From Escherichia coli (GTDB lineage Bacteria; Pseudomonadota; Gammaproteobacteria; Enterobacterales; Enterobacteriaceae): DNA of 64,000 bases. Every line of letters starts with the position of its first letter. The first letter of the stretch is position 1. Below are positions 401 to 31,503 of this stretch, one piece after another. The notes beneath the pieces were generated by a model. That model made no database searches. It had not been told where the DNA came from and saw only the letters and a program-made list of their open reading frames with translations. Where the stretch lies: assembly GCF_036507355.1 (NCBI RefSeq), contig NZ_AP027877.1; one strand, 5' to 3'. Position numbers and translations under genes: made by a program.

Positions 401-456
401 CCGACAGAGCAGGCGAACAGGCCAGCAACAGGTGTTGTCACGGATAAAGGCGTACC

Positions 457-741
457 TCAGTCGGACAGCTTTGCGAAGTACGCCGCGGCTTTTTTTAATA
501 TGTCCCGTTCGTCGGTAACCCGCTTCAGCTCTTTCTGGAGACGGCGGATCTCGGCCTGAGCATCTGACTGTTCTTTATTAGCGGAAGAATCCGGACCGTA
601 CTTCTTTATCCAGGCGTAAAGGCTGTGGGTGGTGATATCGAGACGTGTTGCAACGCTGGCAACAGAATAACCGCGATCAACAACCTGTTTGACTGCTTCA
701 ATTTTAAACTCTTCGGGATAACGCTTACCGCTCATGGGCAC
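457..741 (-). CDS. IS3-family transposase OrfA (HTH)
   Basis: 94-aa ORF identical to 35731-36015; T7 run at 490-496 is the reverse complement of the A7 slippery site. Confidence 0.85.
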   Translation of the reverse strand: MPMSGKRYPEEFKIEAVKQVVDRGYSVASVATRLDITTHSLYAWIKKYGPDSSANKEQSDAQAEIRRLQKELKRVTDERDILKKAAAYFAKLSD

Positions 742-795
742 CTCTCTTTAAGCCATCTTAAATGACTCTGAGGTGTCTGTTAAACCCGTGGCGAT

Positions 796-3114
<2,319 letters not shown>

Positions 3115-3427
3115 GCTTACCTTCCCTGAACGAGCTAACATAAATGCGCCCTTTCTAGCACAGCGAAAAAATGTAAATCCTGATAGCAATATGATTGAAA
3201 ATTAATAACTTTTCGTTAGGCAGTTTTGGGTGTGAGTTGCAAGAGGGGAGACTACTGAATAACTCAAGTTTTATAATCGAGGGGAAAATGGTGATGGCGT
3301 TCATAGCAAAACGCCCTCAACCATAAAGGTCGAGGGCGCTTAAGATGTTAAAAACCCGCTATCCGTTAAAAAACAATGTTCAACTAAGGTCAGTGACATT
3401 GCACTAAAAAAGCGAATTTTTAGAATT

Positions 3428-3503
3428 TGGCTCCTCTGACTGGACTCGAACCAGTGACATACGGATTAACAGTCCGCCGTTCTACCGACTGAACTACAGA
3501 GGA
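3428..3503 (-). tRNA. asnT: tRNA-Asn (GTT)
   Basis: 76-nt match to E. coli tRNA-Asn on reverse strand, ends CCA. Confidence 0.95.
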
Positions 3504-3603
3504 ATCGTGTGAACGGGGCGCATATTACTTAGCGGTACCTTGTCTGTCAACACTAAATTTCATAAGTCATTTCAATTGGTTAATTAATCTGCAACGTTGT
3601 TAA

Positions 3604-4401
3604 TTAATGAACATTCGTCGCCGAAAACGAGTCTGTATCATTAGCGTGATGCAGTCTCTGCAAAGGATCTTGTTGATAAAATTGGCAGAAACGTTGCCAC
3701 AATGAAGGGAAACGAGGAGCAAAAAGTTCTGGGGCGCTAAAGAAATATTCAGAAAGTACGGCAAAACATTCAGCAGGATCACTGGCAGCATAAGCATCAA
3801 TGCTCGCCGCATTCTCGCCAACCAATTCGATTTCTTCCTGAATGTTGTTCATTGCAGCATGAAGATCGTGTTCCCAGCCAGCAACCTCACGCAACGGAAT
3901 AAAGGGAACTCCGCTGGCGCGATCGCCGTTACGGGTGTCCAGCTTATGAGCGACTTCATGAATAATCAGGTTAAAACCAGAAGCATCAAAAGAATCTTGT
4001 ATATCCAACCAGTTCAAAACGATAGGCCCTTGCTGCCAGCTCTGACCTGACTGAACAATACGTTGGTTATGCACCAGACCGATATCGTCTTCCCATTCAT
4101 CATCGACCACAAATGGCGCAGGATAAATTAAGACTTCATGAAAACCATACAGCCATTCCAGTCCTAACTCCAGAACGGGTAGGCAAAATAGAAGTGCTAT
4201 CCGGCAGCTTCTTAATGAATCCAGTTCAAAGCCCTGTAAAGGAACAAGCCGCTTTTGCTGTAAAAAACGTTCGGCAAGAGTGACTAATTTGCTTTGTTCC
4301 TGTTCCGTCAGACACGTTAAAAGGGGGATCGATAGTGCTTCCTGCCAGGGAAGGGCAGTTTGATGTGCTGATTCTTGTACTTTCCAGGGCCACTTAATCA
4401 T
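3604..4401 (-). CDS. mtfA: Mlc titration factor A (zinc-dependent peptidase)
   Basis: 265-aa product starting MIKWPWK with HEVAH motif; ATG at 4399-4401. Confidence 0.93.
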
Positions 4402-4494
4402 CGTTTTGCTCGCAAACTCGTCACTTGAACAAAATTGCACGGACAGGGACTGTTAAAATGCCAAATTTCCTGGCATCATGGCAACCATCTGAAC

Positions 4495-4584
4495 GGAGAG
4501 ATGCCGGAGCGGCTGAACGGACCGGTCTCGAAAACCGGAGTAGGGGCAACTCTACCGGGGGTTCAAATCCCCCTCTCTCCGCCA
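4495..4584 (+). tRNA. serU: tRNA-Ser (CGA)
   Basis: 90-nt match GGAGAGATGCCGGAGCGG...CTCTCCGCCA, long variable arm. Confidence 0.95.
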
Positions 4585-5153
4585 CTTTATCAATGACTTA
4601 TCTCCCGACTTCCCGCCTTGCTTTTCCTAAACAGAACAATCGTAGAATATTCTTGAAGGGTTAGATCGTCACTGTTTTCTGTTCGATACTGTGACATTCA
4701 GCACTTGATTCGCTATGGATCTGACAGGAAGCTTTCGAGCGAAAATGTGCAGTTATTCAGTCGTTTTCTTATCGCTCACCATTATTCTTTTAGACATTCA
4801 TCCTATGAAACTGCCGCAAAGTTGGTGGTGGGAACTGAAGTTGCGTAGAGAAGGGGTCAATAATTAAGTCAAAAAAGGAACGCGGCCGTCAGATTAAAGC
4901 CGCGGGACAAAGTCCATAATTTCCAAGAGTTGTTGAATTTCCCAGCTTTTTTGAAAGCCTTTGTATCATACTAACAAGTAAAAAAGGTTTAAATACCAAA
5001 ATTAACCTGTATTTTTGATAAGTCTTACCATTGTACGATTTACACAGTTTCTGCTCCTCCTTGTTGATAGTGGAAAGGGTGCATTGTGCACTTGCGTAAA
5101 CATTTATGACGCGTTGATGTCCATGGTTCACATTTCCTTGTCAGGGGATCGAC

Positions 5154-5684
5154 TTATTTGCGGCGAGGCATCATTCGTAACAGAGTATTATCTTTCTGAA
5201 TGTAGTGATGAAAGAGTGCTGCGCCAGCGTGAGCTGCGATTAAAAAGTAACCTATATTTGCCCAGGTTTCGTGAATATTTTTTATCAGTGCTTTAATTTC
5301 GCTGTTTGGGGTAACAAAGGGAGACACATTGAAACCAAGGAAACTCCACGATTTTCCACTGTAAGCCATCAAAGCAATCCCCAGCAGAGGAAGTGCAAGG
5401 AAGGTTATATAAAGCATGATGTGCATTAGCGAAGCCGCTTTCATTTGCCAGGCAGGTGGCGGTGGCACAATAGAAGGACCACTATAACGGTGTTTTATAA
5501 TCAGGCGTGGAAACATTAACACCCAAACGAATATACCCGCATTGTAATGTGTTTCTCGCATCAGCAGATAAGTACTACTACCTTTAGGAAACCAGCCACG
5601 GAGTTCCATCGCGGCATAGGTTATTGCAACGAAAAGCAGCGTTATCCAATGTAAATAAATTTGAGTTTTTGAGAATCGGTTCAT
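5154..5684 (-). CDS. yodB: Cytochrome b561 family protein
   Basis: 176-aa membrane protein MNRFSKTQIYLHW...; start chosen by K-12 length. Confidence 0.9.
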   Translation of the reverse strand: MNRFSKTQIYLHWITLLFVAITYAAMELRGWFPKGSSTYLLMRETHYNAGIFVWVLMFPRLIIKHRYSGPSIVPPPPAWQMKAASLMHIMLYITFLALPLLGIALMAYSGKSWSFLGFNVSPFVTPNSEIKALIKNIHETWANIGYFLIAAHAGAALFHHYIQKDNTLLRMMPRRK

Positions 5685-6026
5685 TTTTGTAGCTCCTGTA
5701 ATTTTCACAGTCAAGCTATCCCACGAACCTTAAAAATTCCTTATACAGATGTGGTTTTAAGAATTTGTTATTTAAAAAATTGATAGTGCATATTGTAACC
5801 AGCCAATATAAGCAATGGCGTGAGCACAGGTATCTTTCTCTGTTGGCCGTATTGTGTATGGAATCCGTTATTGGTTAACTCAATGCGGGTTAGCTTATTA
5901 ATATACAGACACGTCATAGTGATGAGCGTGTCTGTAGCTAGCTTGCGTTCAGTGGCGTTTGTGGATGGACCAGTGGCAGTTATGATGACTTACTAAAGCG
6001 GCATCGAGGCGTTATCATGAGAATAC

Positions 6027-6677
6027 TCAATGAGACATCATTTCCTCGACCACTTCTTCGCTACTCAACTGATATGGATAATACGTTGGCCAGTTTTCCA
6101 TTTCATTTAATAAAGATTGCTGTGAATCATTACCCATAAAAATGTGAAAATGAGATGATTTTCGTGGTGCAATTATATGATCGCTAAATTGTATATATTT
6201 AGGGGCTTTGCTTTCAGGATCTTTACATTCGAATAAGTAACGAACGCCTTTCTTGCCTGATTTATAGGTGAGTATTTTGTATCCATCGTAATCATATTTA
6301 CAGGATGTTGTTTCATTATTTCTATGGAATTCAACAATGCCGTCCTCAATGCCAATCATCTCGATATCTGTTGCATAACCTTTGTGATAATAATCTTTAA
6401 TTTCAGCAAATGTTTTAGTTTTATCTGCATCCGCTTTCTTCTGAAAGACGGGGTCAAGTTTGCCACTTTGCAGTAAAGGATAAACGGATTGCCAGACTCC
6501 ATCCCAGTCACTGAGCGTTCGGTTTTGTACATTGGCATCATCAAAAACACCATTAGCAGCTTTTTGTTCGACCTCTGTTAAGGGTTTGCCGTGTGAGTGA
6601 TGACCATGCGAAAAGGCAGGAGCGCTAACAATAAAGACACCTAAAGCAACAGCCAGTTTGTGAAGACGAATCGCCAA
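6027..6677 (-). CDS. zinT: Periplasmic zinc/cadmium-binding protein ZinT
   Basis: His-rich N-terminus HGHHSHGK; 216 codons from in-frame TTG at 6675-6677 (track ATG 6698 gives 223). Confidence 0.9.
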
Positions 6678-6707
6678 AACAGTTTCCTCCAGAGTCATTG
6701 TATATGA

Positions 6708-6732
6708 TGTGTAATGTTATATTGTAACATAT
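6708..6732. promoter_or_regulatory. Zur box upstream of zinT
   Basis: TGTAATGTTATATTGTAACAT near-palindrome resembling the Zur operator consensus, just upstream of the zinT start. Confidence 0.6.
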
Positions 6733-6867
6733 GACAAAATGCAACAACTCTTAGGAGATGAGAGCATAGTTTTCTCAGGTGTACTTATCTATCTTATTGA
6801 AATAAAATGAATTATGTTGATAATTTGAGGTTGATGACAAACGAAACATAACCTGATGTGATCTGCG

Positions 6868-6903
6868 TAGGCCGGATAGGGCGCTCGCGCCGCATCCGGC
6901 AGG
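6868..6903. repeat. REP-like palindromic element
   Basis: GTAGGCCGGATAGGGCGCTCGCGCCGCATCCGGCAG between zinT and msrQ. Confidence 0.6.
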
Positions 6904-6933
6904 GATAACGCGTACTTTGTCGGCAATATGAAG

Positions 6934-7569
6934 TTATAGAGATAATTTGTTGTGAACCTGCTTGCGTAACCGGTTGAAAAAGGAAAGCAACTTCTTATAC
7001 CGTAAGGCTAAAAGCAGTACCGCCAGCCCAGCGTAGATGAGTGGCTGCGGTGAAATAATCTTCACTGACCACAAATAATGTATTGGGGCCAGGATCGCGA
7101 CAAGATAGACGAAGTTATGCAACTGTTGCCAGTGCTTGCCGAGTTTTCGCTGCATCGCCTGGGTTGAAGTGAACGCTAAAGCAAGCAAAATTACCCAGCT
7201 GATAATACCTAACGTTAAATAAGGCCGGGTAATTAACTCCTTACCTAATAACGCCAGATTATTCACGCCCAGCTCCAGCAATGCGTAACTTGTTAAATGC
7301 AGTGTCGCCCAGGCAAAGCACCATAATCCTAACAGGCGGCGAGTGCGTATCAATAACGGCTGTTTTGCGTAGCGTGCCATAGGTGTGATTAACAAGGTCG
7401 CCAGCAAAAATTTCAGTGCAGTGCGACCGGTAAAATGCTGAATATCTTTCACCGGATCGGCACCCAGTCCACCGTGATTGATCGCCCAGACCAGCCAGAG
7501 AAACGGCAACAATCCGGCAAGATGCAGGCAAACTTTCAGCCATGTCACCTGTTTTGCTGTCAGACGCAT
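6934..7569 (-). CDS. msrQ: Methionine sulfoxide reductase haem-binding subunit MsrQ
   Basis: 211-aa polytopic membrane protein; stop of msrP abuts its ATG. Confidence 0.92.
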
Positions 7570-8580
<1,011 letters not shown>

Positions 8581-8682
8581 TCACACTTTTTTGTCGTTAG
8601 CCAGCAAGAGCCGTTTACTGTTAATCTGTCAGGGAGTGTCCTCCCTAACAGTAGCAGAGATCTGCTTTTACATATTTATGCA

Positions 8683-9096
8683 TTAACTGCCACGATAGGT
8701 TGAATACCCATATTGGCTAAGTAATAAAGGCACATGATAATGCTCGTTCACTTTATTAATATGAAATTCAACGGGGATCTCAGGGAAGAAACTTTCAAGA
8801 TTTTGTTTCTTGAAATAGTCCCCGGTTTTAAATACGACACGGTAATCGCCCGTAGTTGCAGTTTGCTCGGGCCACAGTGCCTTAATTCGTCCATCCTTAT
8901 CTGTTTTGGCGGTATTAAGTTGTAACCAGCCGTTGTCCGCTTTCTTTTCAAGAGTGACTGTCACGTCGGCAGCGGGTTTTCCTGTTTGCTGGTTCAAAAT
9001 GTGCACGCTAAGAATGTTTTGTTGTGCAGCATAGACCAAAGAAGGTAATGAAAATGCAGCCGTTACTACGGAGAGTACTAAATAACGCTTTAACAT
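8683..9096 (-). CDS. hiuH: 5-hydroxyisourate hydrolase (transthyretin-like)
   Basis: 137 aa, signal peptide, C-terminal YRGS. Confidence 0.92.
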
Positions 9097-9165
9097 GTTT
9101 ATATCCTTGTCATGTGAATGAGTTTTGAGGATAGCGAAAAAGCGTCCAGGGTAACCTTACAGCAG

Positions 9166-9183
9166 CATTACAATTTTGTAATG
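9166..9183. promoter_or_regulatory. HprR/CusR-type response-regulator box in hiuH-hprR divergent region
   Basis: Inverted repeat CATTACAA-TT-TTGTAATG between divergent hiuH and hprR. Confidence 0.6.
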
Positions 9184-9228
9184 AACCAGGCTGTTTCTAT
9201 AACATATGATTTATGGCATATTATTTTC

Positions 9229-9900
9229 ATGAAGATTTTACTTATTGAAGATAATCAAAGGACCCAGGAGTGGGTAACGCAGGGGCTTTCCGAAGCGGGT
9301 TATGTCATTGATGCCGTTTCTGATGGCAGAGATGGGCTTTATCTTGCGCTGAAGGATGATTATGCATTGATCATTCTGGATATTATGCTTCCGGGTATGG
9401 ATGGCTGGCAGATCTTACAAACGTTAAGAACAGCAAAGCAAACCCCTGTTATTTGCCTTACTGCAAGGGATTCTGTCGATGACAGAGTCAGAGGGCTGGA
9501 CAGTGGGGCAAATGATTATCTGGTAAAACCTTTTTCATTTTCTGAGTTGCTGGCAAGGGTTCGGGCACAATTAAGGCAACATCACGCTTTGAATTCAACA
9601 TTAGAAATCAGCGGCTTAAGAATGGACTCTGTTAGTCAAAGTGTGAGCAGGGACAATGTCAGTATTACACTGACGCGCAAGGAGTTTCAGTTACTTTGGC
9701 TACTGGCCTCCAGAGCTGGCGAAATTATACCCAGAACGGTTATTGCGAGTGAAATTTGGGGAATCAACTTTGATAGTGATACCAATACGGTGGATGTCGC
9801 CATTCGCAGGCTCCGCGCAAAAGTTGATGATCCTTTTCCTGAAAAGCTAATTGCCACAATCCGGGGGATGGGGTATTCATTCGTAGCGGTAAAAAAATAA
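9229..9900 (+). CDS. hprR: OmpR-family response regulator HprR
   Basis: 223 aa from MKILLIEDN; receiver plus winged-helix domains. Confidence 0.92.
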   Translation: MKILLIEDNQRTQEWVTQGLSEAGYVIDAVSDGRDGLYLALKDDYALIILDIMLPGMDGWQILQTLRTAKQTPVICLTARDSVDDRVRGLDSGANDYLVKPFSFSELLARVRAQLRQHHALNSTLEISGLRMDSVSQSVSRDNVSITLTRKEFQLLWLLASRAGEIIPRTVIASEIWGINFDSDTNTVDVAIRRLRAKVDDPFPEKLIATIRGMGYSFVAVKK

Positions 9901-11258
9901 TGAAAAGATTATCTATAACCGTCCGTTTAACCTTGCTTTTTATATTGCTGCTGTCTGTTGCTGGCGCCGGAATTGTCTGGACTCTCTATAATGGCCTGGC
10001 AAGTGAGTTGAAATGGCGCGATGATACAACACTCATTAACCGGACAGCGCAGATCAAGCAGTTGTTAATTGATGGGGTAAATCCAGATACGTTACCTGTA
10101 TACTTTAACCGGATGATGGATGTTAGTCAGGATATCTTGATCATTCATGGTGATAGCATCAATAAAATTGTTAACCGGACAAATGTCAGTGATGGCATGT
10201 TAAATAACATACCTGCTAGTGAGACAATCAGTGTAGCTGGCATTTACAGAAGCATTATTAATGATACAGAGATAGATGCTTTACGAATTAATATTGATGA
10301 AGTTTCGCCATCATTAACGGTTACTGTGGCTAAATTGGCTTCAGCCAGACATAACATGCTTGAACAGTATAAAATCAATAGCATTATAATTTGCATTGTC
10401 GCCATTATACTGTGCTCAGTATTAAGTCCGCTGTTAATCCGAACGGGGTTACGAGAGATCAAAAAGTTGAGTGGTGTAACGGAAGCGCTGAATTATAACG
10501 ATAGCCGAGAGCCTGTTGAGGTTAGCGCATTACCGAGAGAACTAAAACCTCTTGGGCAGGCGTTGAATAAAATGCATCATGCTTTAGTCAAAGATTTTGA
10601 GCGTCTAAGTCAGTTTGCTGACGATCTCGCTCATGAACTTAGAACGCCAATTAATGCATTACTGGGTCAGAATCAGGTTACGCTCAGTCAAACCAGAAGT
10701 ATCGCTGAATATCAAAAAACAATTGCCGGAAACATTGAAGAGCTGGAAAATATTTCGCGGTTAACAGAGAACATACTGTTTCTTGCCAGGGCAGATAAAA
10801 ACAATGTTTTGGTGAAGCTGGACTCGCTTTCTCTCAATAAGGAAGTCGAAAATTTGTTGGACTATCTTGAATATCTTTCAGACGAGAAAGAGATTTGCTT
10901 TAAGGTCGAGTGCAATCAGCAAATCTTTGCGGATAAAATTTTACTGCAACGAATGTTATCGAATCTTATTGTTAACGCTATTCGATATTCGCCAGAAAAA
11001 TCGCGTATTCATATAACCAGTTTTCTTGATACCAACGGATCTCTTAATATTGATATCGCCAGCCCTGGAACGAAAATTAATGAGCCTGAAAAACTCTTCC
11101 GTAGATTTTGGCGGGGAGATAATTCGCGTCATTCCGTAGGTCAGGGACTAGGCCTTTCTTTAGTCAAAGCGATTGCCGAATTACATGGGGGAAGTGCTAC
11201 GTATCACTATCTCAATAAGCATAATGTGTTCCGGATTACGTTGCCGCAAAGAAATTAA
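9900..11258 (+). CDS. hprS: Sensor histidine kinase HprS
   Basis: 452 aa, two TM segments, H-box HELRTP, ATPase domain; ATGA overlap with hprR. Confidence 0.92.
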   Translation: MKRLSITVRLTLLFILLLSVAGAGIVWTLYNGLASELKWRDDTTLINRTAQIKQLLIDGVNPDTLPVYFNRMMDVSQDILIIHGDSINKIVNRTNVSDGMLNNIPASETISVAGIYRSIINDTEIDALRINIDEVSPSLTVTVAKLASARHNMLEQYKINSIIICIVAIILCSVLSPLLIRTGLREIKKLSGVTEALNYNDSREPVEVSALPRELKPLGQALNKMHHALVKDFERLSQFADDLAHELRTPINALLGQNQVTLSQTRSIAEYQKTIAGNIEELENISRLTENILFLARADKNNVLVKLDSLSLNKEVENLLDYLEYLSDEKEICFKVECNQQIFADKILLQRMLSNLIVNAIRYSPEKSRIHITSFLDTNGSLNIDIASPGTKINEPEKLFRRFWRGDNSRHSVGQGLGLSLVKAIAELHGGSATYHYLNKHNVFRITLPQRN

Positions 11259-11365
11259 CATAGGGCTTCAGTACGCCATAAATTAACCGTGAAAAAACGC
11301 AGCCACGTCGTTAATACTAACGCGGCTGCGATTGATTATGCGCTTACATTAAAACGTAACAGGGA

Positions 11366-12217
11366 TTAACCCGCGTAAGCTGCCAGCATTTCCTGCGCCG
11401 CCAGTTTACCCAACGCATTCGCTGCGAAAGGACTGTCGCCGGTGAGAAGTTTACGGTCCTTATGTACTCGCCCGGTGATGTCGTCATTAATGATGTTCAT
11501 GCCCATTTTCTTCAGTTCTTCGCCGAAGTACCAGGTGAGATGACCCGGCATATAGCCAATCTCTGGCGTTTGTTTGTCTGCGGCGTCTGGGAATGCGCAA
11601 ATGGAATAACCATTCAGTGGGTTATCGCCGTGGCGAAGCGCCAGAAAAGCCGCCGGGCCGTGGCAAAGGGAGATAACAAAACGGTCATTTTTGATTGCCC
11701 ACTGTAAAGCGGCAGCTACGTCCTGGCTTTCAGGTAAACCAATAAGTGCGCCATGACCACCAGGAACAAAGATTGCTGCATATTCGCTATCAGCGTTGAG
11801 GCTGGCGACAACCTCCGCGAGTTTCTTCGGATTGCGGAACAACGATTTATGCTGCTCAAAGAATGGCATTACTTTTTCATCTTTGTGCGGCATAGCCCAG
11901 TATTCAAACTTGGTCATCAGACCGGAAATGGTCGCCACTTCGAATTCGAAACCTGCAGCATGGAGATGATACAACGGCAGCAACGTTTCAATCGGATGGT
12001 TACCGGTCGAGAACAGTTTTCCGTTATCGGTCGGCAAATAACGTTCGTCCGCGGCGATCACCAGAATTTTATGTTTACCGCGATACGGTTTTGGATAGTC
12101 CACGCCATCAAGATCAGAGACAGGACTGGTATATTGGCTAAGCGAATATTCTGAAGGGAAGAATGCATTATCTTCAGCAATATCGACCTGCGGATTTTTA
12201 CTTGTTTGAACAGTCAT
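11366..12217 (-). CDS. hchA: Glyoxalase III / Hsp31 (DJ-1/PfpI family)
   Basis: 283 aa MTVQTSKNPQVD... Confidence 0.93.
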   Translation of the reverse strand: MTVQTSKNPQVDIAEDNAFFPSEYSLSQYTSPVSDLDGVDYPKPYRGKHKILVIAADERYLPTDNGKLFSTGNHPIETLLPLYHLHAAGFEFEVATISGLMTKFEYWAMPHKDEKVMPFFEQHKSLFRNPKKLAEVVASLNADSEYAAIFVPGGHGALIGLPESQDVAAALQWAIKNDRFVISLCHGPAAFLALRHGDNPLNGYSICAFPDAADKQTPEIGYMPGHLTWYFGEELKKMGMNIINDDITGRVHKDRKLLTGDSPFAANALGKLAAQEMLAAYAG

Positions 12218-12808
12218 AGTGTATTCCTTATTGTTGCTTAGTTAGGGTAGTCACTATATTTGCGACTGAGCTGGTCGCTATTTTTAACCAGGCTAGAAAA
12301 TTGAGTCAATATATCGAAAGCGGTAGTCGGCGGGTGTAAGTATGTAATGATGATGCTGCACTGGTGTTGAATATTATTCACGCCAAATTTTCCTTATTGA
12401 GCAACGTCGTCGCAAGTGGCCTCAATGATTTTAGACCATTATCAAAGGTACGGGGCGGCGGGGAGAGATTTAGTGCTGTGGAATATTGTGGTGCTGATGA
12501 ATATTTATATCCAGGATTGGCAGAGAAAAAGCTTTTTTCATGCACTATTTTTGCAAATATTTCTATATGGGAGGCGGTTTTGTTGCAGATTAATTCATAA
12601 AGAAATGCATTTGGGTCTTGGTTTGAAGAGTAGCTGGTTGATGTTATTGTGCCAGGAGGTGCAGGATAAGGGGCTGTATCGATATGCTTTGGCAATTGCG
12701 CGTGCCGCAGAGGGAGATGAAATGCCAATAAAAAAGCCTGAGTTCGATGAGGGACGAACTCAGGCTAGTGTTAAGTTTTACAGTAACACGCCGCAGCGAG
12801 TTGGCTGA

Positions 12809-13996
12809 TTAGAACTGGTAGACTAAGCCCACAGCAACGATATCATCGGTAGCGATGCCGTTTTCTTTGTAGAAGTCGTCGTCGTTGTCCAGCAGGTTGA
12901 TTTTGTAATCAACATAAGTGGACATGTTTTTGTTGAAGTAGTAGGTCATACCAATATCAACATATTTAACCAGATCTTTGTTGGTGTAATGATGATTACC
13001 CTGGCTGTCGAAGTTATCACTATTTACACCGCCTAAATCCTTACCTTTAGATTGCAGGTAAGCGATGGACGGGCGCAGACCGAAGTCGAACTGATACTGA
13101 GCAACAACTTCAAAGTTTTGGGTTTTGTTAGCGATGGCATCAGCATCACCGTAACCAGTCATGTTACGGGTTTCAGCATACATAGCTGCTAAGTAAACGT
13201 TATTAGCGTCGTATTTAGCACCAACGGTCCATGCTTCTGCTGTTTCACCGCCAGCAGTTGCATCGAAGCGATCTCCATAACGAGTGTTATGAGTACCTTT
13301 GTGAACCTGATTGTCGGTACGGTCAGAGTTAGAGTAAGCAGCGCCCAGACTTAAACCAAAGTCAAAGTCATAGGAAGTGGACATACCGTAACCGTCGCCG
13401 TTCTCTTTAGCAAGTTTACGTCCATTACCGTTACCTGAACCTTCTTGATCAAATAATCCGCTTTTCTCGTTGTTACCCTGATACTGGAGTGCAAAGTTCA
13501 GACCATCAACTTGACCAAAGAAACCATTGTTACGATAGGTTGCTACGCTGTTAGCACGACCGTTCATGAAGTTGTCAGCGCCAGCATAGGTATCTCCACC
13601 AAATTCTGGCAGCATATCGGTCCATGCTTCTACGTCATATACGACACCGTAGTTACGACCATAGTCGAAAGTACCATTCTGACCAAAGCCGAAACCTGCA
13701 AATGCCAGACGCGTTGCGGTATTACCCTTGTCGCTTTCAGGACCGTTTGCGCCAATGTTAAATTCCCACTGACCATAACCAGTGAACTGGTCAGCGATCT
13801 GGGTTTCACCTTTGAAACCGATACGGGCATATGACATGTCGCCATCACTGCCAGAGTCATCAGAGAAGTAGTGCAGACCCGCTACTTTTCCGTACAAATC
13901 CAGTTTATTGCCATCTTTATTATAGACTTCAGCCGCATTTGCTGCGCCAGCAACTAATAACGCCGGGACCAGCATTGCCAGAACTTTTCTTTTCAT
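12809..13996 (-). CDS. yedS: OmpC/OmpF-family general porin, apparently intact
   Basis: Signal peptide [21 protein letters not shown], ~395 aa, C-terminal ...GLVYQF. Confidence 0.88.
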
Positions 13997-14307
13997 TATG
14001 TATTCCCTTGTGATTATAATCTTCATGAATATATCAATAAGTGCCGTTATCCAAAAAAAAGCACATTTGGATACTATTCTATGAAGTTCATTTTATTTTA
14101 AAGATTACATGTAACAAATGTATTTAAAAGACTTCAAAATGTTTCTAATCTATTTAATATGATTCATAATTATGAATTCTAAATATAAATATTCATGAAA
14201 ATTATAAGTATATATCAATATGTTATGAGTTGAGCGGAAAGATAGGGAGTATCAATGATTGTTACGCCAAACACCTGGTGTGATCACGCGCACATTAATG
14301 AAGGCAT

Positions 14308-14398
14308 AAAAAAAAGCCGGCATCATGCCGGCCCAAAAAATATAAACAAGACGATAAAAGGCTAATAACGGAAGCATCATGACACAGAATAATAAAAA
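14308..14398 (-). ncRNA. rseX: Candidate small RNA at the RseX locus (yedS-yedR intergenic)
   Basis: Minus-strand intrinsic terminator (hairpin 14316-14332, U8 from the A-run at 14308-14315); locus placement from memory of K-12, sequence identity not verified. Confidence 0.35.
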
Positions 14399-14562
14399 GG
14401 TATAATTGTAATCAGTGCTAATATATTGATTGAATGAATTAATAAAGCCGATATCAAAGATAAATAAAATCGCTCAAAACGATTTTTCCTGTATTCACTG
14501 CCGTTGCGCAAAAATTATCTATTTGTTCAAAAAATGAGTGAGTCTTGACTGGCTCATTCAAT

Positions 14563-14928
14563 GTGGAAAAATGTGACTTTTATCACATAATAGTACTAAG
14601 TCTGAATTTTCCGGGTTATCTCAAAATGGAATACGGTTCGACAAAGATGGAAGAGAGACTCTCTCGCAGCCCTGGCGGCAAACTGGCTTTGTGGGCTTTC
14701 TATACATGGTGTGGCTATTTCGTCTGAGCAATGGCGCGTTACATCTGGGTGATGAGCCGGATCCCCGATGCCCCCGTGTCGGGATTTGAAAGCGATTTAG
14801 GCTCTACCGCGGGAAAGTGGTTAGGGGCACTGGTCGGATTTTTATTTATGGCTCTGGTCGGGGCATTGTTAGGCAGCATTGCCTGGTACACCCGACCTCG
14901 TCCCGCACGTAGCAGACGCTATGAATAA
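14563..14928 (+). pseudogene. yedR: Inner membrane protein YedR interrupted by in-frame TGA
   Basis: ORFs 14545-14727 and 14731-14928 are in one frame separated by TGA at 14725-14727; GTG at 14563 to 14928 gives 121 codons. Confidence 0.6.
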
Positions 14929-14967
14929 AAACTGCTAAGGTTGCGACTCTTTGGCAACGGAGCGCGT

Positions 14968-15663
14968 ATGGACTTACAACACTGGCAGGCACAGTTCGAA
15001 AACTGGTTGAAAAACCATCATCAGCACCAGGACGCGGCCCATGACGTGTGTCATTTTCGCCGCGTCTGGGCTACGGCACAGAAGCTGGCGGCAGATGATG
15101 ACGTCGATATGCTGGTGATTTTAACCGCCTGTTATTTTCACGATATTGTGAGCCTGGCGAAAAATCATCCGCAAAGGCAGCGTTCTTCAATCCTGGCGGC
15201 AGAAGAGACGCGTCGCCTGCTCCGTGAAGAGTTCGTGCAATTTCCGGCGGAGAAAATTGAGGCCGTTTGTCATGCAATTGCCGCTCACAGTTTCAGCGCG
15301 CAAATTGCCCCCTTAACAACGGAAGCTAAAATCGTCCAGGATGCGGATCGGCTGGAAGCCCTGGGAGCGATTGGCCTGGCGCGCGTGTTTGCCGTTTCAG
15401 GGGCATTGGGCGTGGCGCTGTTTGATGGCGAAGATCCGTTCGCACAGCATCGCCCGCTTGATGATAAACGTTACGCGCTGGATCATTTCCAGACTAAGTT
15501 GCTGAAGCTACCGCAAACCATGCAAACCGTAAGAGGCAAGCAGCTGGCGCAGCACAACGCGCAATTTTTAGTCGAGTTTATGGCGAAGCTCAGTGCCGAA
15601 CTGGCGGGGGAGAATGAAGGTGTCGATCACAAGGTGATAGATGCGTTTTCACCTGCGGGCTGA
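14968..15663 (+). CDS. yedJ: HD-domain phosphohydrolase
   Basis: 231 aa [14 protein letters not shown]... with HD motif. Confidence 0.9.
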
Positions 15664-15729
15664 GCGCGTGGCCCTAAATGGCTGTAATTATGTTAACCTG
15701 TCGGCCATCTCAGATGGCCGGTTAAATCT

Positions 15730-17148
15730 ATGCAGGAAAATATATCAGTAACCGATTCATACAGCACCGGGAATGCCGCACAGGCAATGCTGGAGAAACT
15801 GCTGCAAATTTATGATGTTAAAACGCTGGTGGCGCAGCTTAATGGTGTGGGTGAGAATCACTGGAGCGCGGCAATTTTAAAACGTGCGCTGGCGAATGAC
15901 TCGGCATGGCACCGTTTAAGTGAGAAAGAGTTCGCCCATCTGCAAACGTTGTTACCCAAACCACCGGCACATCATCCGCATTATGCGTTTCGCTTTATCG
16001 ATCTATTTGCCGGAATTGGCGGTATCCGTCGCGGTTTTGAATCGATTGGCGGACAGTGCGTGTTTACCAGCGAATGGAACAAACATGCGGTACGCACTTA
16101 TAAAGCCAACCATTATTGCGACCCGGCGACGCATCATTTTAATGAAGATATCCGCGACATCACCCTCAGCCATAAAGAAGGCGTGAGTGATGAGGCGGCG
16201 GCGGAACATATTCGTCAACACATTCCTGAACACGATGTTTTACTGGCCGGTTTCCCTTGTCAGCCATTTTCGCTGGCTGGCGTATCGAAAAAGAACTCGC
16301 TCGGGCGGGCGCACGGTTTTGCCTGCGATACTCAGGGCACGCTGTTCTTTGATGTGGTGCGCATTATCGACGCGCGTCATCCGGCGATGTTTGTGCTCGA
16401 AAACGTCAAAAACCTGAAAAGCCACGACCAGGGTAAAACGTTCCGCATCATCATGCAGACGCTGGACGAACTGGGCTATGACGTGGCTGATGCAGAAGAT
16501 AACGGGCCGGACGATCCGAAAATCATCGATGGTAAACATTTTCTGCCGCAGCACCGTGAACGCATCGTGCTGGTGGGTTTTCGTCGCGATCTTAATCTGA
16601 AAGCCGATTTTACTCTGCGTGATATCAGCGAATGTTTCCCTGCACAGCGAGTGACGCTGGCGCAGCTGCTGGACCCGATGGTCGAGGCGAAATATATCCT
16701 GACGCCGGTGCTGTGGAAGTACCTCTATCGTTATGCGAAAAAACATCAGGCGCGCGGTAACGGCTTCGGTTATGGAATGGTTTATCCGAACAATCCGCAA
16801 AGCGTCACGCGTACGCTGTCTGCGCGTTATTACAAAGATGGCGCGGAAATTTTAATCGATCGCGGCTGGGATATGGCCACGGGTGAGAAAGACTTTGACG
16901 ATCCGCTGAATCAGCAACATCGTCCACGTCGGTTAACGCCTCGGGAATGCGCGCGCTTAATGGGTTTTGAAGCGCCGGGAGAAGCGAAATTCCGCATTCC
17001 GGTTTCGGACACTCAGGCCTATCGCCAGTTCGGTAACTCGGTGGTCGTGCCGGTCTTTGCCGCGGTGGCAAAACTGCTTGAGCCAAAAATCAAACAGGCG
17101 GTGGCGTTGCGTCAGCAAGAGGCACAACATGGCCGACGTTCACGATAA
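15730..17148 (+). CDS. dcm: DNA-cytosine C5 methyltransferase Dcm
   Basis: 472 aa with FAGIGG and PCQ motifs. Confidence 0.95.
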
Positions 17149-17599
17149 GGCCACTCGCAGCAAAAATATGCGCGCGATTGCCACGCGTGATACGGCGATT
17201 GAGAAGCGCCTCGCCAGTCTGTTAACCGGGCAGGGCCTGGCGTTTCGCGTTCAGGACGCCAGTCTGCCCGGACGCCCGGATTTTGTCGTTGATGAATATC
17301 GCTGCGTGATATTTACCCATGGCTGCTTCTGGCATCATCATCACTGCTATCTGTTTAAAGTGCCTGCGACTCGAAGCGAGTTCTGGCTGGAGAAGATAGG
17401 TAAAAATGTTGAGCGCGATCGCCGCGATATCAGTCGCTTGCAGGAACTCGGCTGGCGCGTATTGATTGTCTGGGAGTGCGCGTTACGTGGGCGCGAGAAG
17501 CTGACGGATGAAGCGCTTACCGAGCGTCTGGAAGAGTGGATCTGCGGCGAAGGTGCCAGCGCGCAGATCGACACGCAGGGGATACATTTACTCGCTTGA
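17129..17599 (+). CDS. vsr: Very-short-patch repair endonuclease Vsr
   Basis: 156 aa [16 protein letters not shown]...; start overlaps the dcm 3' end in another frame. Confidence 0.93.
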
Positions 17600-18508
17600 T
17601 GCGTCCTGAATAACTGGCGCAACTACGGGTTTTGCCGGGAAGAGATATTTTCCCAACGTGACCAGTACCACCGCGAAGACAATTACGCCGAGCGCCAGCC
17701 ATTCAATCTTCGACAGCGTCTCTCCGCCCAGTCCCGTACCCAGCAAGACCGCGACCACCGGGTTAACGTAGGCGTAGCTGGTGGCGAGAGCCGGACTGAC
17801 ATTACGGATTAAATACATATAAGCGTTGATGGCGATAATCGAACCAAACAGCGCCAGATAGCCGACCGCAAGGAAGCCTGAAAGGGAAGGGAGCGCCGTC
17901 AGTTTTTCACCCGCAATCATCGACGCGATCATTAACACCACGCCTGCCGCCAGCATCTCAATCGCACCCGCCATCATCCCTACAGGTAAGGTAATGCGCG
18001 AGCCATAAACTGAGCCAAACGCCCAGCTAATCGAGCCGATTAAAATCAGAATCGCGCCCCACGGATTGCCGCTTAAATTTCCACCGCTATTGAGCATGAT
18101 GATTCCGGCAAGCCCAATGGCAATACCCACCCATTCCAGTTTGCGCGTTTTAATGCCAAACAGGCGGCTGAAGCACAGGGTAAAGAGGGGCACGGTTGCA
18201 ACCACTACGGCGGCGATGCCGGAAGGAACATTTTGATGTTCGGCAACCGTCACCATGCCATTACCGACAGCCAGCAATAACAGGCCAATCAGCGCGGCAT
18301 TGAGCAGCGGACGTAGCGGGGGGAGTTTGTGTCCGCGCAGTAGCAAAAATGCCAGCAATAAAATACCGGCTACCAGGAATCGAACGCCCGCCATCATTAA
18401 CGGAGGCCAGCTTTCCACGCCAATCCGAATGACAAAATAGGTTGAGCCCCAAATGATATACAACGCAAACAGCGCGCCAAAAAGCGGTAACAACTGGCGG
18501 AAACGCAT
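17588..18508 (-). CDS. yedA: EamA/DMT-family transporter
   Basis: 306 aa, ten predicted TM helices. Confidence 0.9.
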   Translation of the reverse strand: MRFRQLLPLFGALFALYIIWGSTYFVIRIGVESWPPLMMAGVRFLVAGILLLAFLLLRGHKLPPLRPLLNAALIGLLLLAVGNGMVTVAEHQNVPSGIAAVVVATVPLFTLCFSRLFGIKTRKLEWVGIAIGLAGIIMLNSGGNLSGNPWGAILILIGSISWAFGSVYGSRITLPVGMMAGAIEMLAAGVVLMIASMIAGEKLTALPSLSGFLAVGYLALFGSIIAINAYMYLIRNVSPALATSYAYVNPVVAVLLGTGLGGETLSKIEWLALGVIVFAVVLVTLGKYLFPAKPVVAPVIQDASSE

Positions 18509-18680
18509 AATCCCTCACGGTGGAAATAAAAAGGTGGTTCATAGTAAACGTGAAAATCATTCTGCTGGCGAGAGATATAATTGCACTTGATTGTTAAAAA
18601 AATGTTGACCTGTGAAGCAAGTATCAGAGCTGCCGTTTTTGCTTCATACTTACACCCTTCAACAATAAAAATGAGAGGGA

Positions 18681-19598
18681 ATGCTTTTGGCCGGGAGTAG
18701 TTTACTGACGTTGCTCGATGATATCGCCACACTGCTGGACGATATCTCCGTGATGGGCAAACTGGCGGCGAAGAAAACCGCCGGTGTATTAGGGGATGAC
18801 TTATCGCTCAATGCGCAACAAGTTTCAGGCGTGCGGGCCAACCGGGAACTTCCCGTGGTCTGGGGCGTGGCGAAAGGATCGCTGATTAATAAAGTGATTC
18901 TGGTGCCACTGGCGCTGATCATCAGTGCGTTTATCCCGTGGGCGATTACGCCTCTGTTGATGATTGGTGGCGCGTTTCTCTGCTTTGAAGGGGTAGAGAA
19001 AGTGCTGCATATGCTGGAGGCGCGTAAACATAAAGAAGATCCGGCGCAGAGTCAGCAGCGTCTGGAGAAGCTGGCGGCGCAGGATCCGCTGAAGTTTGAA
19101 AAGGACAAAATAAAAGGGGCGATTCGTACCGATTTTATATTGTCTGCCGAAATCGTCGCCATCACGCTGGGGATTGTGGCCGAAGCGCCGTTGCTTAATC
19201 AGGTGCTGGTGCTTTCAGGCATCGCGCTGGTAGTGACCGTGGGCGTCTACGGTCTGGTAGGGGTTATCGTTAAGATTGATGACCTGGGGTATTGGCTGGC
19301 GGAAAAATCCAGCGCGCTGATGCAGGCATTAGGTAAAGGGTTATTGATTATCGCGCCCTGGCTGATGAAAGCGTTATCGATTGTCGGCACGCTGGCGATG
19401 TTCCTCGTCGGCGGCGGGATTGTGGTACATGGTATTGCGCCGCTGCATCACGCCATTGAACATTTCGCCGGGCAGCAAAGTGCAGTGGTGGCGATGATAT
19501 TACCGACTGTTTTAAATCTGATTCTTGGATTTATCATCGGCGGCATCGTGGTGCTGGGAGTGAAAGCCGTAGCGAAAATGCGCGGTCAGGCACATTAA
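18681..19598 (+). CDS. yedI: DUF808 inner membrane protein
   Basis: 305 aa. Confidence 0.88.
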
Positions 19599-19676
19599 TA
19601 CTCGCACAGGCTATTATGCAAAATTCGCCATCTTCAACTAAGGTGAACAAGTTTCACTCGAAAAAAGGAGGCGAGT

Positions 19677-19859
19677 ATGAGCTTTATGGTTAGTGAGGAA
19701 GTTACGGTTAAAGAGGGCGGCCCGCGGATGATTGTCACTGGATACTCCAGCGGTATGGTTGAGTGTCGTTGGTATGACGGTTACGGGGTCAAGCGGGAAG
19801 CTTTTCATGAAACCGAGCTTGTTCCGGGGGAGGGGAGTCGTTCTGCGGAAGAAGTTTGA
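19677..19859 (+). CDS. yodC: Small protein YodC
   Basis: 60 aa, good RBS AAAGGAGG. Confidence 0.8.
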   Translation: MSFMVSEEVTVKEGGPRMIVTGYSSGMVECRWYDGYGVKREAFHETELVPGEGSRSAEEV

Positions 19860-19875
19860 AAGGGAATCATTAACG

Positions 19876-19900
19876 CCAGGCCGGATCACATCCGGCCTGG
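19876..19900. repeat. Perfect 10-bp stem hairpin (REP-like) after yodC
   Basis: CCAGGCCGGA-TCACA-TCCGGCCTGG; no U tract. Confidence 0.45.
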
Positions 19901-20029
19901 TGTGCCAATGCCTGAAATGAATGATAGTCGCGTCTTATCATGCCACCATTATAAAATTATCGCTGTTTTGCGGTACGCTATCGCCAGGTTATGCCAGAAT
20001 CATAAAAAAGCAGGTGGGGAGTCGTCAGG

Positions 20030-22555
<2,526 letters not shown>

Positions 22556-22734
22556 TTACCAGGATGATTCTCAAAACAGCACAAATTATCAAAGATGATT
22601 TTTTCGGGAGCGATCCCGCTGACGCCAGAGCCACCAAGGGGTGACGTGCGTCACATTTCTATTCATAAGTAGCGTTAATCATTCATATGGCGAATATTTT
22701 CTTGTCAGCGAAAAAAATTGCGGATAAGGTGATG

Positions 22735-22821
22735 AACACATCAGATTTCCTGGTGTAACGAATTTTTTAAGTGCTTCTTGCTTAAGCAAGTTTCATCCCG
22801 ACCCCCTCAGGGTCGGGATTT
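22735..22821 (+). ncRNA. dsrA: DsrA small regulatory RNA
   Basis: 87 nt AACACATCAGATTTCCTGGTG...GGGTCGGGATTT; three stem-loops, 3' terminator hairpin 22795-22819 plus U-run; between yedP and yodD as in K-12. Confidence 0.9.
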
Positions 22822-22834
22822 TTTTATTGTGCAT

Positions 22835-23062
22835 TCAACGATTCACTTCAGAGACGCTGAAGTCATGAATATCCAGTTCGAAGGCATCCGCCAATTCACG
22901 CCATGTATGATATTCACGTCCATCGACGCTAACGTGTTCAGAATCGTTCTGGCTGCGATGAACTTCGCTTTCGCTAATTTCATTGATCGCCGCCAGCAGG
23001 GCATCGACATCGACGCTGACCTCACGTTTTGCGGTATCGCTGTACTCTTTTGCGGTTTTCAT
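22835..23062 (-). CDS. yodD: Stress-induced small protein YodD
   Basis: 75 aa MKTAKEYSDTAKREV... Confidence 0.85.
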   Translation of the reverse strand: MKTAKEYSDTAKREVSVDVDALLAAINEISESEVHRSQNDSEHVSVDGREYHTWRELADAFELDIHDFSVSEVNR

Positions 23063-23134
23063 CATCTTTCCTCGCAACCGTTACTCTGTTGTTGCCGCCA
23101 GTCGTTAAGTCCGCCTGGCATCTCTTAAGTATAG

Positions 23135-23413
<279 letters not shown>

Positions 23414-23456
23414 TCTAATTCAGCCTGACTGGTGGGAAACCACCAGTCAGAATGTG

Positions 23457-24080
23457 TTAGCGCATGTTGACAAAAATACCATTAGTCACATTATCCGTCA
23501 GTCGGACGACATGGTAGATAACCTGTTTATTATGCGTTTTGATCTTACGTTTAATATTACCTTTATGCGATGAAACGGTCTTGGCTTTGATATTCATTTG
23601 GTCGGAGATTTGAATGGTTCCCTGACCTGCCATCCACATTCGCAACATACTCGATTCGGTTCGGCTCAATGATAACGTCGGCATATTTAAAAACGAGGTT
23701 ATCGTTGTCTCTTTTTTCAGAATATCGCCAAGGATATCGTCGAGAGATTCCGGTTTAATCGATTTAGAACTTATCAATAAATTTTTTCTGACCAATAGAT
23801 ATTCATCAAAATGAACATTGGCAATTGCCATAAAAACGATAAATAACGTATTGGGATGTTGATTAATGATGAGCTTGATACGCTGACTGTTAGAAGCATC
23901 ATGGATGAAACAGTCCTCATTAATAAACACCACTGAAGGGCGCTGTGAATCACAAGCTATGGCAAGGTCATCAACGGTTTCAATGTCGTTGATTTCTCTT
24001 TTTTTAACCCCTCTACTCAACAGATACCCGGTTAAACCTAGTCGGGTGTAACTACATAAATCCATAATAATCGTTGACAT
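23457..24080 (-). CDS. rcsA: Colanic acid capsule regulator RcsA (LuxR-type HTH)
   Basis: 207 aa [16 protein letters not shown]... Confidence 0.93.
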
Positions 24081-24369
24081 GGCATACCCTCACTCAATGC
24101 GTAACGATAATTCCCCTTACCTGAATATTTCATCATGACTAAACGGAACAACATGGGTCACCTAATGCGCCACTCTCGCGATTTTTCAGGCGGACTTACT
24201 ATCCCGTAAAGTGTTGTATAATTTGCCTGGAATTGTCTTAAAGTAAAGTAAATGTTGCGATATGTGAGTGAGCTTAAAACAAATATTTCGCTGCAGGAGT
24301 ATCCTGGAAGATGTTCGTAGGTATTATTTTTCGGATAATCCTTAGGATAACATGATAAACGTTACGGAA

Positions 24370-25155
24370 TTATATTAATGGCAATTCACTAATAATATCA
24401 GCCAGCAAATTAAAAATTTCACTGAATAAATGTTCGCAAAAAGGCGCAATTAACGGCATTAATGCCGCCATTAAAGAGATGCCGACAGTCAGAGTTAATG
24501 GAAATCCAATAACAAAAATGGATAATTGCGGGGCCATACGATTAAGTAAACCTAATGCCAGATTCAGTGTCAGCAGCAGAGTAATGAGCGGTAACGCCAG
24601 CATCAGCCCGTTAAGGAAAATCAAACTCCCTGCTTTGGTGAGTGCCAGAAACGCATTGCTGTTCAACGGTTCGCCACCAATCGGCAGGGTGTGAAAGGTA
24701 TCGACCAGCAGTGAAATCAACCATAAATGACCGTTAAATGTCAGGAACAGCAGTAACGCCAGCATATCCATGATACGCGCTAAAACGGGCATATTAAGAT
24801 GGCTGGCCGGATCGACAAATGTCGCAAATGACAGCCCCATTTGCAGACCGATAATTTCGCCAGCGGTTCGCACAGCGGCAAAGGCAAATTGCATGGTAAA
24901 ACCAAGCGCAATGCCGATCAGGATCTGCTGCACGGCCAGCCACAGAGCAAAGAACGAAAAAACAGGAACATCGTTGGCAGGTAATGATGGAGCAATGGCG
25001 AATGTGATCATCATTGCCAGACCCAGTTTTACCCGTTTCGGTACGCTGCGTTCGCTCAGAATCGGCGCGGTGGAGATCAGCGCCAGCACGCGCAGTAACG
25101 GCCAGAAGTACAGGCTTAACCAGGATAGCCATTGTTCGCTTGTCACCTGCAACAT
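24370..25155 (-). CDS. fliR: Flagellar export apparatus protein FliR
   Basis: 261 aa from MLQVTSEQW; polytopic. Confidence 0.92.
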
Positions 25156-25162
25156 AGTACGG

Positions 25163-25432
25163 CTACCCGATGATATACGGCAGGTTAGTGAACAAGGTGC
25201 GGACGTAATCCAGCAACAGATTGAGCATCCACGGTCCGGCAATAATAATGGCGATAAATACGGCGATGATTTTCGGAATAAACGACAGCGTCATTTCGTT
25301 AATCTGCGTGGCGGCCTGCAAAATACTGATGATAAGGCCCGTGACCAACGCTACCAACAATAGCGGGGCAGCCAGTGCCAGCGCGACTTTCATCGCTTCA
25401 GTCCCCATCATCATGACCGATTCAGGTGTCAT
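25163..25432 (-). CDS. fliQ: Flagellar export apparatus protein FliQ
   Basis: 89 aa. Confidence 0.92.
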
Positions 25433-25441
25433 TTTGCCTCT

Positions 25442-26179
25442 CTAGCTGTAAAAGCTCTGCGCCAGCGAACCGACCAGCAATTGCCAGCCATCCACCAGTA
25501 CAAACAGCATCAGTTTAAAGGGCAGAGCAATGGTGGCTGGGGGAACCATCATCATCCCCAATGCCATCAACACGCTGGCTATCACCAGGTCGATAATCAA
25601 AAAAGGGATGAAAATCGTGAAGCCTATCTGAAATGCGGTTTTCAACTCGCTGGTCACGTAGGCCGGGAGCAAAATGCGCATCGGCACGGCTTCAGGTCCC
25701 TGCAACGGGCCGGTATTCGCCAGTCTGGCAAACAACCCTAAATCTGCCTCACGGGTCTGACGCAGCATAAACTCACGCAGCGGCTGCGCCCCTTTTTCCA
25801 GCGCCTCCTGCATTGATATTTTCTCTTCACTGAATGGCTGGTACGCATCGACATAAATTTTGTCGATCACTGGCGACATAATAAAAAAGGTCAAAAACAG
25901 TGCCAGCCCCAGCAATACCTGGTTAGGTGGCGCGGAGGGTGTTCCCAGTGCGTTACGCAATAAACCAAAAACAATGATGATGCGGGTGAAACTGGTCATC
26001 ATCAGTAAAATTGCCGGAATAAACGTCAACGAGGTGATGAACACCAGCGTCTGCACCGGGAGCGACCAGCTTTGTCCACCGCCAGGCAGCGGCTGGCTGG
26101 TGATACCCGGCAGTTGCGCGAAGGCGAGGGGCGTAATCAGCCAGAGAAGGACAGGTGCGACAGACAATAAACGACGCAT
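25442..26179 (-). CDS. fliP: Flagellar export apparatus protein FliP
   Basis: 245 aa with signal peptide. Confidence 0.93.
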
Positions 26180-26544
26180 CAGGATCTCCCACTACGCTTA
26201 AGCAAATTTTTCATGACCGACTGAAAATCGGTCTGCGGTATCTCTTCTGTTGGTGCTGAAGGGGGAAGTTTATGCAGCAGATTGATTTGCCCTGCGGTAA
26301 CGCCGAGCACCAGCCGTGCATCTTCCACATCGACCACCACAACCCGTTCACGCGCGCCCAGCGAAGCACTGGCGCTAATTTTCAGACCGTTAACGCCAGT
26401 GCGTTTAGGGGCAAATCCCAGCCGTTTTACCAGCCAGGCAGCAGCGAGGATCAGGGCAATAATGGCGATGAGTGCGCCGCTCACCTGCAGCAGTGGCGCA
26501 GCAGAAACCGGCGCGGAAGATTGCACAGTAGCGTGGTTATTCAT
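26179..26544 (-). CDS. fliO: Flagellar protein FliO
   Basis: 121 aa from MNNHATVQ. Confidence 0.9.
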
Positions 26545-26546
26545 CA

Positions 26547-27961: not shown

Positions 27962-27965
27962 GTCG

Positions 27966-28430: not shown

Positions 28431-28534
28431 GTGTTGCGGTCTTCCTGTGTCGCTACTGCTTATCGGCTAATTATCCTGCGTCTTGAGCGCAACAAAGCGG
28501 GGAAAAGACGCGGATTACGGTGCTACCTCTGACG

Positions 28535-30111: not shown

Positions 30112-30129
30112 CTGCCGTTATCTCCTGGG

Positions 30130-31502: not shown

Positions 31503-31503
<1 letters not shown>
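30130..31503 (-). CDS. fliI: Flagellum-specific ATPase FliI
   Basis: 457 aa, Walker A GSGVGKS. Confidence 0.95.

Follow-up and report, generated by a model that had tools for sequence, protein, structure and literature searches.

The closest described counterparts of the porin gene examined here are the yedS pseudogene of Escherichia coli K-12 (b1964-b1966, now b4496), E. coli OmpC, Salmonella OmpS1 and OmpK37 of Klebsiella pneumoniae. Functional copies of yedS have reportedly been published already from clinical isolates. Warner et al. are said to have described, in 2013, a functional yedS in a carbapenem-resistant clinical E. coli isolate deficient in OmpC and OmpF, and reportedly found its regulation to depend on MicF; their abstract is said to call yedS 'normally nontranslated'. 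With E. coli OmpC, the YedS protein of the window (the whole 64,000-nucleotide stretch of E. coli DNA analysed here) shares the fold family, a near-identical signal peptide and N-terminus, the L3 motif PEFGGDTY and the C-terminal motif. It is nevertheless only 62% identical to K-12 OmpC (53% to K-12 OmpF) and 28 residues longer, mostly in loops, and its gene occupies a different position, ompC lying in the order rcsD-micF-ompC-apbE.

Like YedS, OmpS1 belongs to the OmpC/OmpF family and its gene has an upstream region that is long and AT-rich; the two names are linked as aliases in the literature (PMC2731931, PMC4264507). A review describes OmpS1 as quiescent, kept silent by H-NS/StpA and relieved by LeuO (PMC4264507), and yedS and ompS1 are given as aliases in PMC2731931. 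One E. coli protein of the yedS family has been named 'outer membrane protein S1' by its submitter, and the 80 porin loci that we retrieved included no Salmonella locus with dcm-yedJ flanks. Among solved structures, OmpK37 (PDB 6v78, K. pneumoniae; E=6.9e-145) is the closest to YedS, followed by Omp36, OmpK36 and OmpC; in contrast to OmpK37, the YedS of the window has longer loops L4, L5 and L7. The porin that follows dcm-yedJ-drpB in K. pneumoniae ATCC 13883 also finds its best match in OmpK37, ahead of OmpK36, but is clearly not identical to the crystallised protein (532 bits, many substitutions).

The yedS gene of the window and its locus

The gene is an intact allele of yedS, a spare OmpC-type porin of Escherichia. 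Its parts, the two positions at which K-12 is interrupted and the small RNA gene upstream of it are as follows.

12809-13996, minus strand: yedS coding sequence, 395 codons plus stop, uninterrupted, encoding an OmpC-like general diffusion porin (ORF list, sequence)
13996-13994 and 12809-12811, minus strand: start codon ATG and stop codon TAA, respectively (read from the sequence)
13934-13996, minus strand: signal-peptide codons, 21 residues, cleavage after ANA
14004-14009, minus strand: Shine-Dalgarno sequence AAGGGA, 7 nt before the ATG (read from the sequence)
12735-12766, minus strand: strong intrinsic terminator downstream of yedS, its 12-bp stem holding 7 G-C pairs, with a T run after it (terminator scan)
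13511-13513, minus strand: codon 162, CAA (Gln) in the window and TAG (amber) in K-12 (DNA alignment and translation)
13334, minus strand: base missing from K-12 yedS, a 1-bp deletion causing a frameshift (DNA alignment)
14309-14398, minus strand: rseX, gene of an Hfq-binding sRNA, directly upstream of yedS (Rfam RF01401, 97.7 bits against a gathering score of 50)
14314-14334: rseX terminator (terminator scan)

The original prediction of a continuous OmpC-like frame of about 395 codons, with a signal peptide and a C-terminal phenylalanine, is borne out in full by the ORF list, Pfam and NCBIfam. The longest mechanical ORF starts at an in-frame ATG at 14026 (405 aa); this ATG lacks conservation in Citrobacter in the alignment, and all intact alleles of 395 aa that we opened carry the 395-aa start in their RefSeq annotation. 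The Shine-Dalgarno sequence is kept as AAGG-GA across Escherichia and in three of the five Citrobacter sequences, the other two retaining only AAGG, and the amino acids of the signal peptide are identical in 16 of the 16 E. coli yedS alleles compared (protein alignment). Alignment with the OmpC precursor identifies a cleavable Sec signal peptide, and the translation ends in VGLVYQF, giving the terminal Phe expected of the porin family; the C-terminal aromatic residue (Phe) of porins is a signal for outer-membrane assembly.

Pfam Porin_1 (PF00267) matches residues 27-395 with E=6.6e-141 over profile positions 1-337 of 337, YedS passes the NCBIfam 'porin OmpC' subfamily model NF007841 with 540.7 bits against a cut-off of 484, and the constriction-loop motif PEFGGD of L3 is present in alignment to OmpK37 and OmpC. 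An AlphaFold model shows the pattern of a 16-strand barrel by DSSP, with one strand split in two. This model was built on a 13-sequence alignment and has a mean pLDDT of 60.9, too weak for fold searches, which the sequence matches to solved porins in any case make needless; its low-confidence parts are mainly the signal peptide and loops.

The locus was placed by megablast against 5,426 complete E. coli genomes. In the window, hchA (11366-12217, minus strand) is followed by yedS, rseX and drpB (14731-14928, plus strand), and the gene order dcm-yedJ-drpB-rseX-porin-hchA-hprSR is common to the window, K-12 and other E. coli. At the same position MG1655 (NC_000913.3) carries the yedS pseudogene b4496, preceded by rseX (b4603), and RefSeq flags the copy in K-12 MC1061 as 'frameshifted; internal stop'. 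The window and K-12 alleles align over their full length at 85.8-89.2% DNA identity, with differences clustered in the extracellular loops L4-L7; the upstream intergenic region is 96% identical and rseX 100%. K-12 thus has the same locus, 5' UTR, signal peptide, 3' flank and upstream rseX, but also the amber codon 162 and the 1-bp deletion, whereas the window copy is uninterrupted. The original statement that yedS is fragmented in K-12 was therefore accurate, and an alignment against K-12, proposed as the way to reveal a missed stop or frameshift, placed the lesions on the K-12 side alone.

An rseX-porin tandem is kept in all five Escherichia species representatives, and beside the porin of two Citrobacter genomes rseX gives a weak signal of 56-60 bits. 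Between 12100 and 14800, rseX was the sole hit of an Rfam scan at E<=1. A second gene for an Hfq-binding sRNA, dsrA, lies elsewhere in the window (22735-22821, plus strand; 102.5 bits in Rfam). The 590-bp spacer between yedS and hchA (12218-12808) is strongly skewed towards G over C on the plus strand (up to 0.39) and contains a 130-aa ORF (12416-12808) on the strand opposite yedS; two sampled genomes annotate an opposite-strand 'hypothetical protein' there, and the Rfam scan matched no RNA family in the spacer.

None of the 5,426 complete genomes is more than about 99.0% identical to positions 1-12800 or more than about 98.8% identical to positions 14000-34000, so the window derives from a lineage not represented among them. 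Elsewhere in the window, the flagellar ORFs at 24-35 kb look full length. The left end (1-3189) corresponds to an IS3-family transposase in strain NCTC11023; the yeeJ-like adhesin ORF at 796-3189 (minus strand) is only 797 aa long, against a gene remnant of about 6.4 kb in NCTC11023, which suggests an IS-associated truncation.

Occurrence, selection and allele diversity

The rarity of an intact yedS that the original prediction implied did not hold. We sampled 40 rows evenly spaced down the megablast ranking of complete E. coli genomes and opened 19 of these genomes: yedS is intact in 15 and a pseudogene in the remaining four, each with a different lesion.

K-12: amber codon and frameshift
DETEC-P1056: Tyr to stop in loop L7
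WP8-S17-ESBL-05: frameshift
CX08: IS2 insertion

The exact 395-aa protein also occurs on 557 contigs in a public protein collection, indexed in 921 blocks. An intact gene is the usual state: of the complete E. coli genomes sampled in which the locus is present, about four in five carry one. Loss is recurrent but confined to a minority, and the K-12 pseudogene is one of several independent losses rather than the ancestral or typical condition of the gene. For four of the 40 spaced rows the match was to true ompC or ompF alone, and both of the two that we opened were true ompC loci; roughly a tenth of complete E. coli genomes thus seem to lack the whole rseX-yedS interval. Intact yedS is also already catalogued, as a named gene with an annotated K-12 pseudogene and with its protein in hundreds of public assemblies.

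Beyond E. coli, yedS is intact in the five Escherichia species representatives, and the place after dcm-yedJ-(drpB) is taken by a porin gene in Escherichia, Citrobacter, Klebsiella, Enterobacter, Kluyvera, Lelliottia and further genera. Pairwise dN/dS for the window yedS gave the following values.

Escherichia sp. E1V33: 0.029 (6 non-synonymous, 50 synonymous)
E. albertii: 0.065 (28 non-synonymous, 90 synonymous)
E. whittamii: 0.077 (19 non-synonymous, 58 synonymous)
E. coli N1286: 0.078 (13.5 non-synonymous, 42.5 synonymous)
Citrobacter amalonaticus: 0.071 (94 non-synonymous, 166 synonymous)

An ungapped value for one further allele (L033) was set aside as an alignment artefact, the alleles differing by indels. 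Ratios of 0.03-0.08 across species indicate that the window allele is under strong purifying selection, which argues that the gene is used in nature.

Within E. coli the locus is far from uniform. Porins encoded there are 352, 357, 371, 387, 393, 395 or 404 aa long and 51-98% identical to the window protein, the divergent alleles (loci L014-L024) falling at 51-70%, and three short allele classes fail all NCBIfam cut-offs for OmpC, OmpF and PhoE. This divergence is sharply bounded. Across six E. coli yedS alleles, the DNA at 14120-13941 is 96-100% identical, and at 14000-13941 the divergent alleles match the window at 100%; from about 13940 identity drops, the coding DNA for the mature porin being only 20-85% identical between the window and divergent E. 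coli alleles, and it returns to 83-100% directly past the yedS stop, at 12808.

Two further comparisons concern the flanks. Compared with its counterpart in Escherichia sp. E1V33, the window yedS reaches 99% identity in protein and 95.3% in DNA, against only 87-92% DNA identity for the flanking genes, which suggests either sharing of the allele across species or very strong constraint. Strains with a yedS coding sequence one base off that of the window (99.9%) show about 5% divergence from it in the neighbouring intergenic DNA, with some 25 differences in the 400 bp at 12400-12800 and some 23 in the 600 bp at 14000-14600; on this comparison the flanking alleles are uncoupled from the coding allele. 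Given the sharp drop in identity inside conserved flanks, the sharing with E1V33 and the uncoupled flanks, the locus looks like a hot spot of homologous allele replacement, and allele exchange between species is likely. From these alignments we are evenly divided on the broader proposition that yedS would constitute a replaceable porin cassette, set between the regulatory region, 5' UTR and signal-peptide codons on one side and the flank with the terminator on the other, with at least five deeply diverged classes of mature porin (352-404 aa), some of them shared across Escherichia species. We found no description of such a cassette pattern in the searchable literature on yedS; the yedS-yedR intergenic region has already been used as a host-informative marker (PMC11267920).

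Upstream region and regulation

The original prediction had called positions 14030-14280 strongly AT-rich. The tract has a GC content of 25.1%, against 48.9% for the whole window, which places it among the lowest 0.13% of all 251-nt stretches; the GC minimum of the window (21%) falls within it, and the 312-bp rseX-yedS intergenic region has 26.9% GC. The upstream features considered are as follows.

14030-14280: AT-rich tract, presumed region of H-NS-type silencing (from composition, with the role of H-NS taken from PMC8313858)
13997-14150, minus strand: promoter-proximal and leader block, the last 150 bp or so before the ATG, nearly invariant from Escherichia to Citrobacter
14090-14117, minus strand: candidate sigma-70 promoter TTGTTA-16 nt-TAAAAT, 9 of 12 matches, inside the conserved block (promoter scan)
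14279-14294: CRP-type palindrome TGTGCGCGTGATCACA, just downstream of the rseX terminator (read from the sequence)

Conservation of this region was evaluated by aligning the window with five Citrobacter sequences and with four Escherichia species besides E. coli. Its distal part, from about 14300 to 14150, varies among Escherichia and Citrobacter. The promoter-proximal block is more conserved than the yedS coding sequence, which is 75-78% identical to Citrobacter, and it presumably holds the core promoter and regulator sites.

Motif searches gave mixed results. Sigma-70-like sites upstream of yedS are no more numerous than in shuffled sequences. The conserved block holds GAAACATTTTGAA / ATACATTTGTTACAT repeats resembling OmpR boxes, and the best matches to an OmpR weight matrix, made from six K-12 OmpR sites each verified in sequence, lie 179 and 159 nt from the ATG, with a phase of 20 bp; the C1 and C2 sites of ompC lie at 179 and 158 nt. 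The top matrix score upstream of yedS is 6.9, against a shuffle maximum that also averages 6.9, so OmpR control of yedS is a conjecture. The K-12 equivalent (2033766) of the palindrome TGTGCGCGTGATCACA has been assigned to yedS as a TGTGA-N6-TCACA-type site in a Footprint-seq preprint (PMC12871828), and from the motif we read sites of this type as probable CRP sites. The high-affinity H-NS motif TCGATAAATT had zero matches within one mismatch and one at two mismatches.

In the predicted fold of the yedS leader, the Shine-Dalgarno sequence and start codon are unpaired. An ATCCAAA/TTTGGAT hairpin in the presumed 5' leader was dropped from consideration, the fold of that leader not being significantly stable (z=-1.4). 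Pairing of small RNAs with the yedS start was evaluated by duplex calculation between sRNA seed regions and positions -35 to +25, and was predicted neither for MicF (z=+0.7) nor for RseX (z=+0.4); the MicF-ompF control in the same calculation gave z=-5.8. Calculations with RNAduplex on MicF or RseX at whole length and the yedS leader were not informative, in that even the published pair RseX-ompC did not rise above shuffles. The null seed-region duplexes thus do not support direct sRNA control at the start codon, and the reported MicF dependence of yedS, if real, may be indirect.

In K-12, rseX becomes detectable only on deletion of hns, which also de-represses 'surrounding areas' (PMC8313858). 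A porin '50% homologous to YedS' has been detected in membranes of a STEC strain (PMC9731836), so porins of the YedS type are not always silent. The earlier wording 'silenced or conditionally expressed' fits the AT-rich tract, the H-NS repression of rseX and the review of ompS1; silencing of yedS is inferred from these.

Competing explanations and implications

Alongside what is observed directly (an intact gene, its family, locus, conservation, selection and base composition), we consider it likely that yedS in the window encodes a functional, conditionally silenced quiescent porin of the Salmonella OmpS1 kind. YedS would be exported by its 21-residue signal peptide and fold into a trimeric beta-barrel of 16 strands, with loop L3 (PEFGGD) constricting the channel, and its pore would pass small hydrophilic solutes, beta-lactams included, across the outer membrane. 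The very AT-rich upstream region would most likely leave the gene silent in ordinary laboratory growth, through repression of the H-NS/StpA type that could be lifted under particular conditions via the conserved promoter-proximal block.

Two alternatives concern what the gene is and where it came from, and we give almost no credence to either. That it is OmpC itself or a recent ompC duplicate is what its annotation would imply, RefSeq labelling the gene at the yedS locus ompC and the 'porin OmpC' model NF007841 being passed with 540.7 bits against 484. That model, however, describes a subfamily and is not an equivalog, which is why RefSeq/PGAP gives yedS the name 'ompC: porin OmpC'. True ompC lies between rcsD/micF and apbE, whereas the window gene lies between rseX and hchA, and this position together with the 62% identity to K-12 OmpC refutes the identification. 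Porins can also be phage-associated, as are NmpC and Lc. A horizontally acquired or prophage-borne gene would agree with the AT-rich flank and with an allele that shares 99% protein identity with one from another Escherichia species beside flanks of 87-92% DNA identity, but the flanks are without phage or mobile genes, many Enterobacteriaceae genera have a porin at this position, and the allele would appear to move by homologous replacement inside conserved flanks rather than as an island.

The remaining alternatives concern whether and when the gene is expressed. yedS might owe its intact frame solely to an accident of timing, as a cryptic, never expressed gene heading for decay as in K-12. 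Independent inactivation in four of the 19 sampled genomes, the absence of the locus from about four of the 40 evenly spaced records and the phrase 'normally nontranslated', reportedly used in the abstract by Warner et al., all lean this way. We nonetheless hold it to be very improbable, dN/dS values of 0.03-0.08 (50-166 synonymous against 6-94 non-synonymous changes) being incompatible with neutral decay, the promoter-proximal block, Shine-Dalgarno sequence and signal peptide being conserved as far as Citrobacter, and the gene being intact in all five Escherichia species representatives. It is somewhat less improbable, though still unlikely, that yedS is an ordinarily expressed major porin of the window strain, free of silencing. 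The conserved promoter-proximal block, the unpaired Shine-Dalgarno sequence and start codon and the YedS-like porin in STEC membrane preparations (PMC9731836) would all suit such a porin; against it stand an upstream tract that is the most AT-rich of the 64-kb window and the behaviour of K-12 rseX and its surroundings on deletion of hns (PMC8313858). The upstream DNA at 14120-13941 is moreover 98-100% identical to that of the other E. coli alleles compared, and the K-12 upstream region is 96% identical as a whole, so the same control of the window gene is to be expected. The conditionally silenced, quiescent porin stays the most likely reading.

An intact yedS as such carries little weight, this state being already known. 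The porin repertoire of natural E. coli is poorly represented by K-12, and a spare porin can restore or alter the entry of beta-lactams and carbapenems in strains deficient in ompC and ompF. Under the RefSeq label 'porin OmpC', genomes appear to hold two ompC genes, which can mislead calls of porin loss in resistance genomics. Only the cassette-like diversity of alleles might merit a population study of its own. If the cassette is real, the window allele would be one member of a set of classes, and the pattern would imply long-term balancing or frequency-dependent selection on a presumably silent porin, with phages, colicins or host immunity as possible agents.
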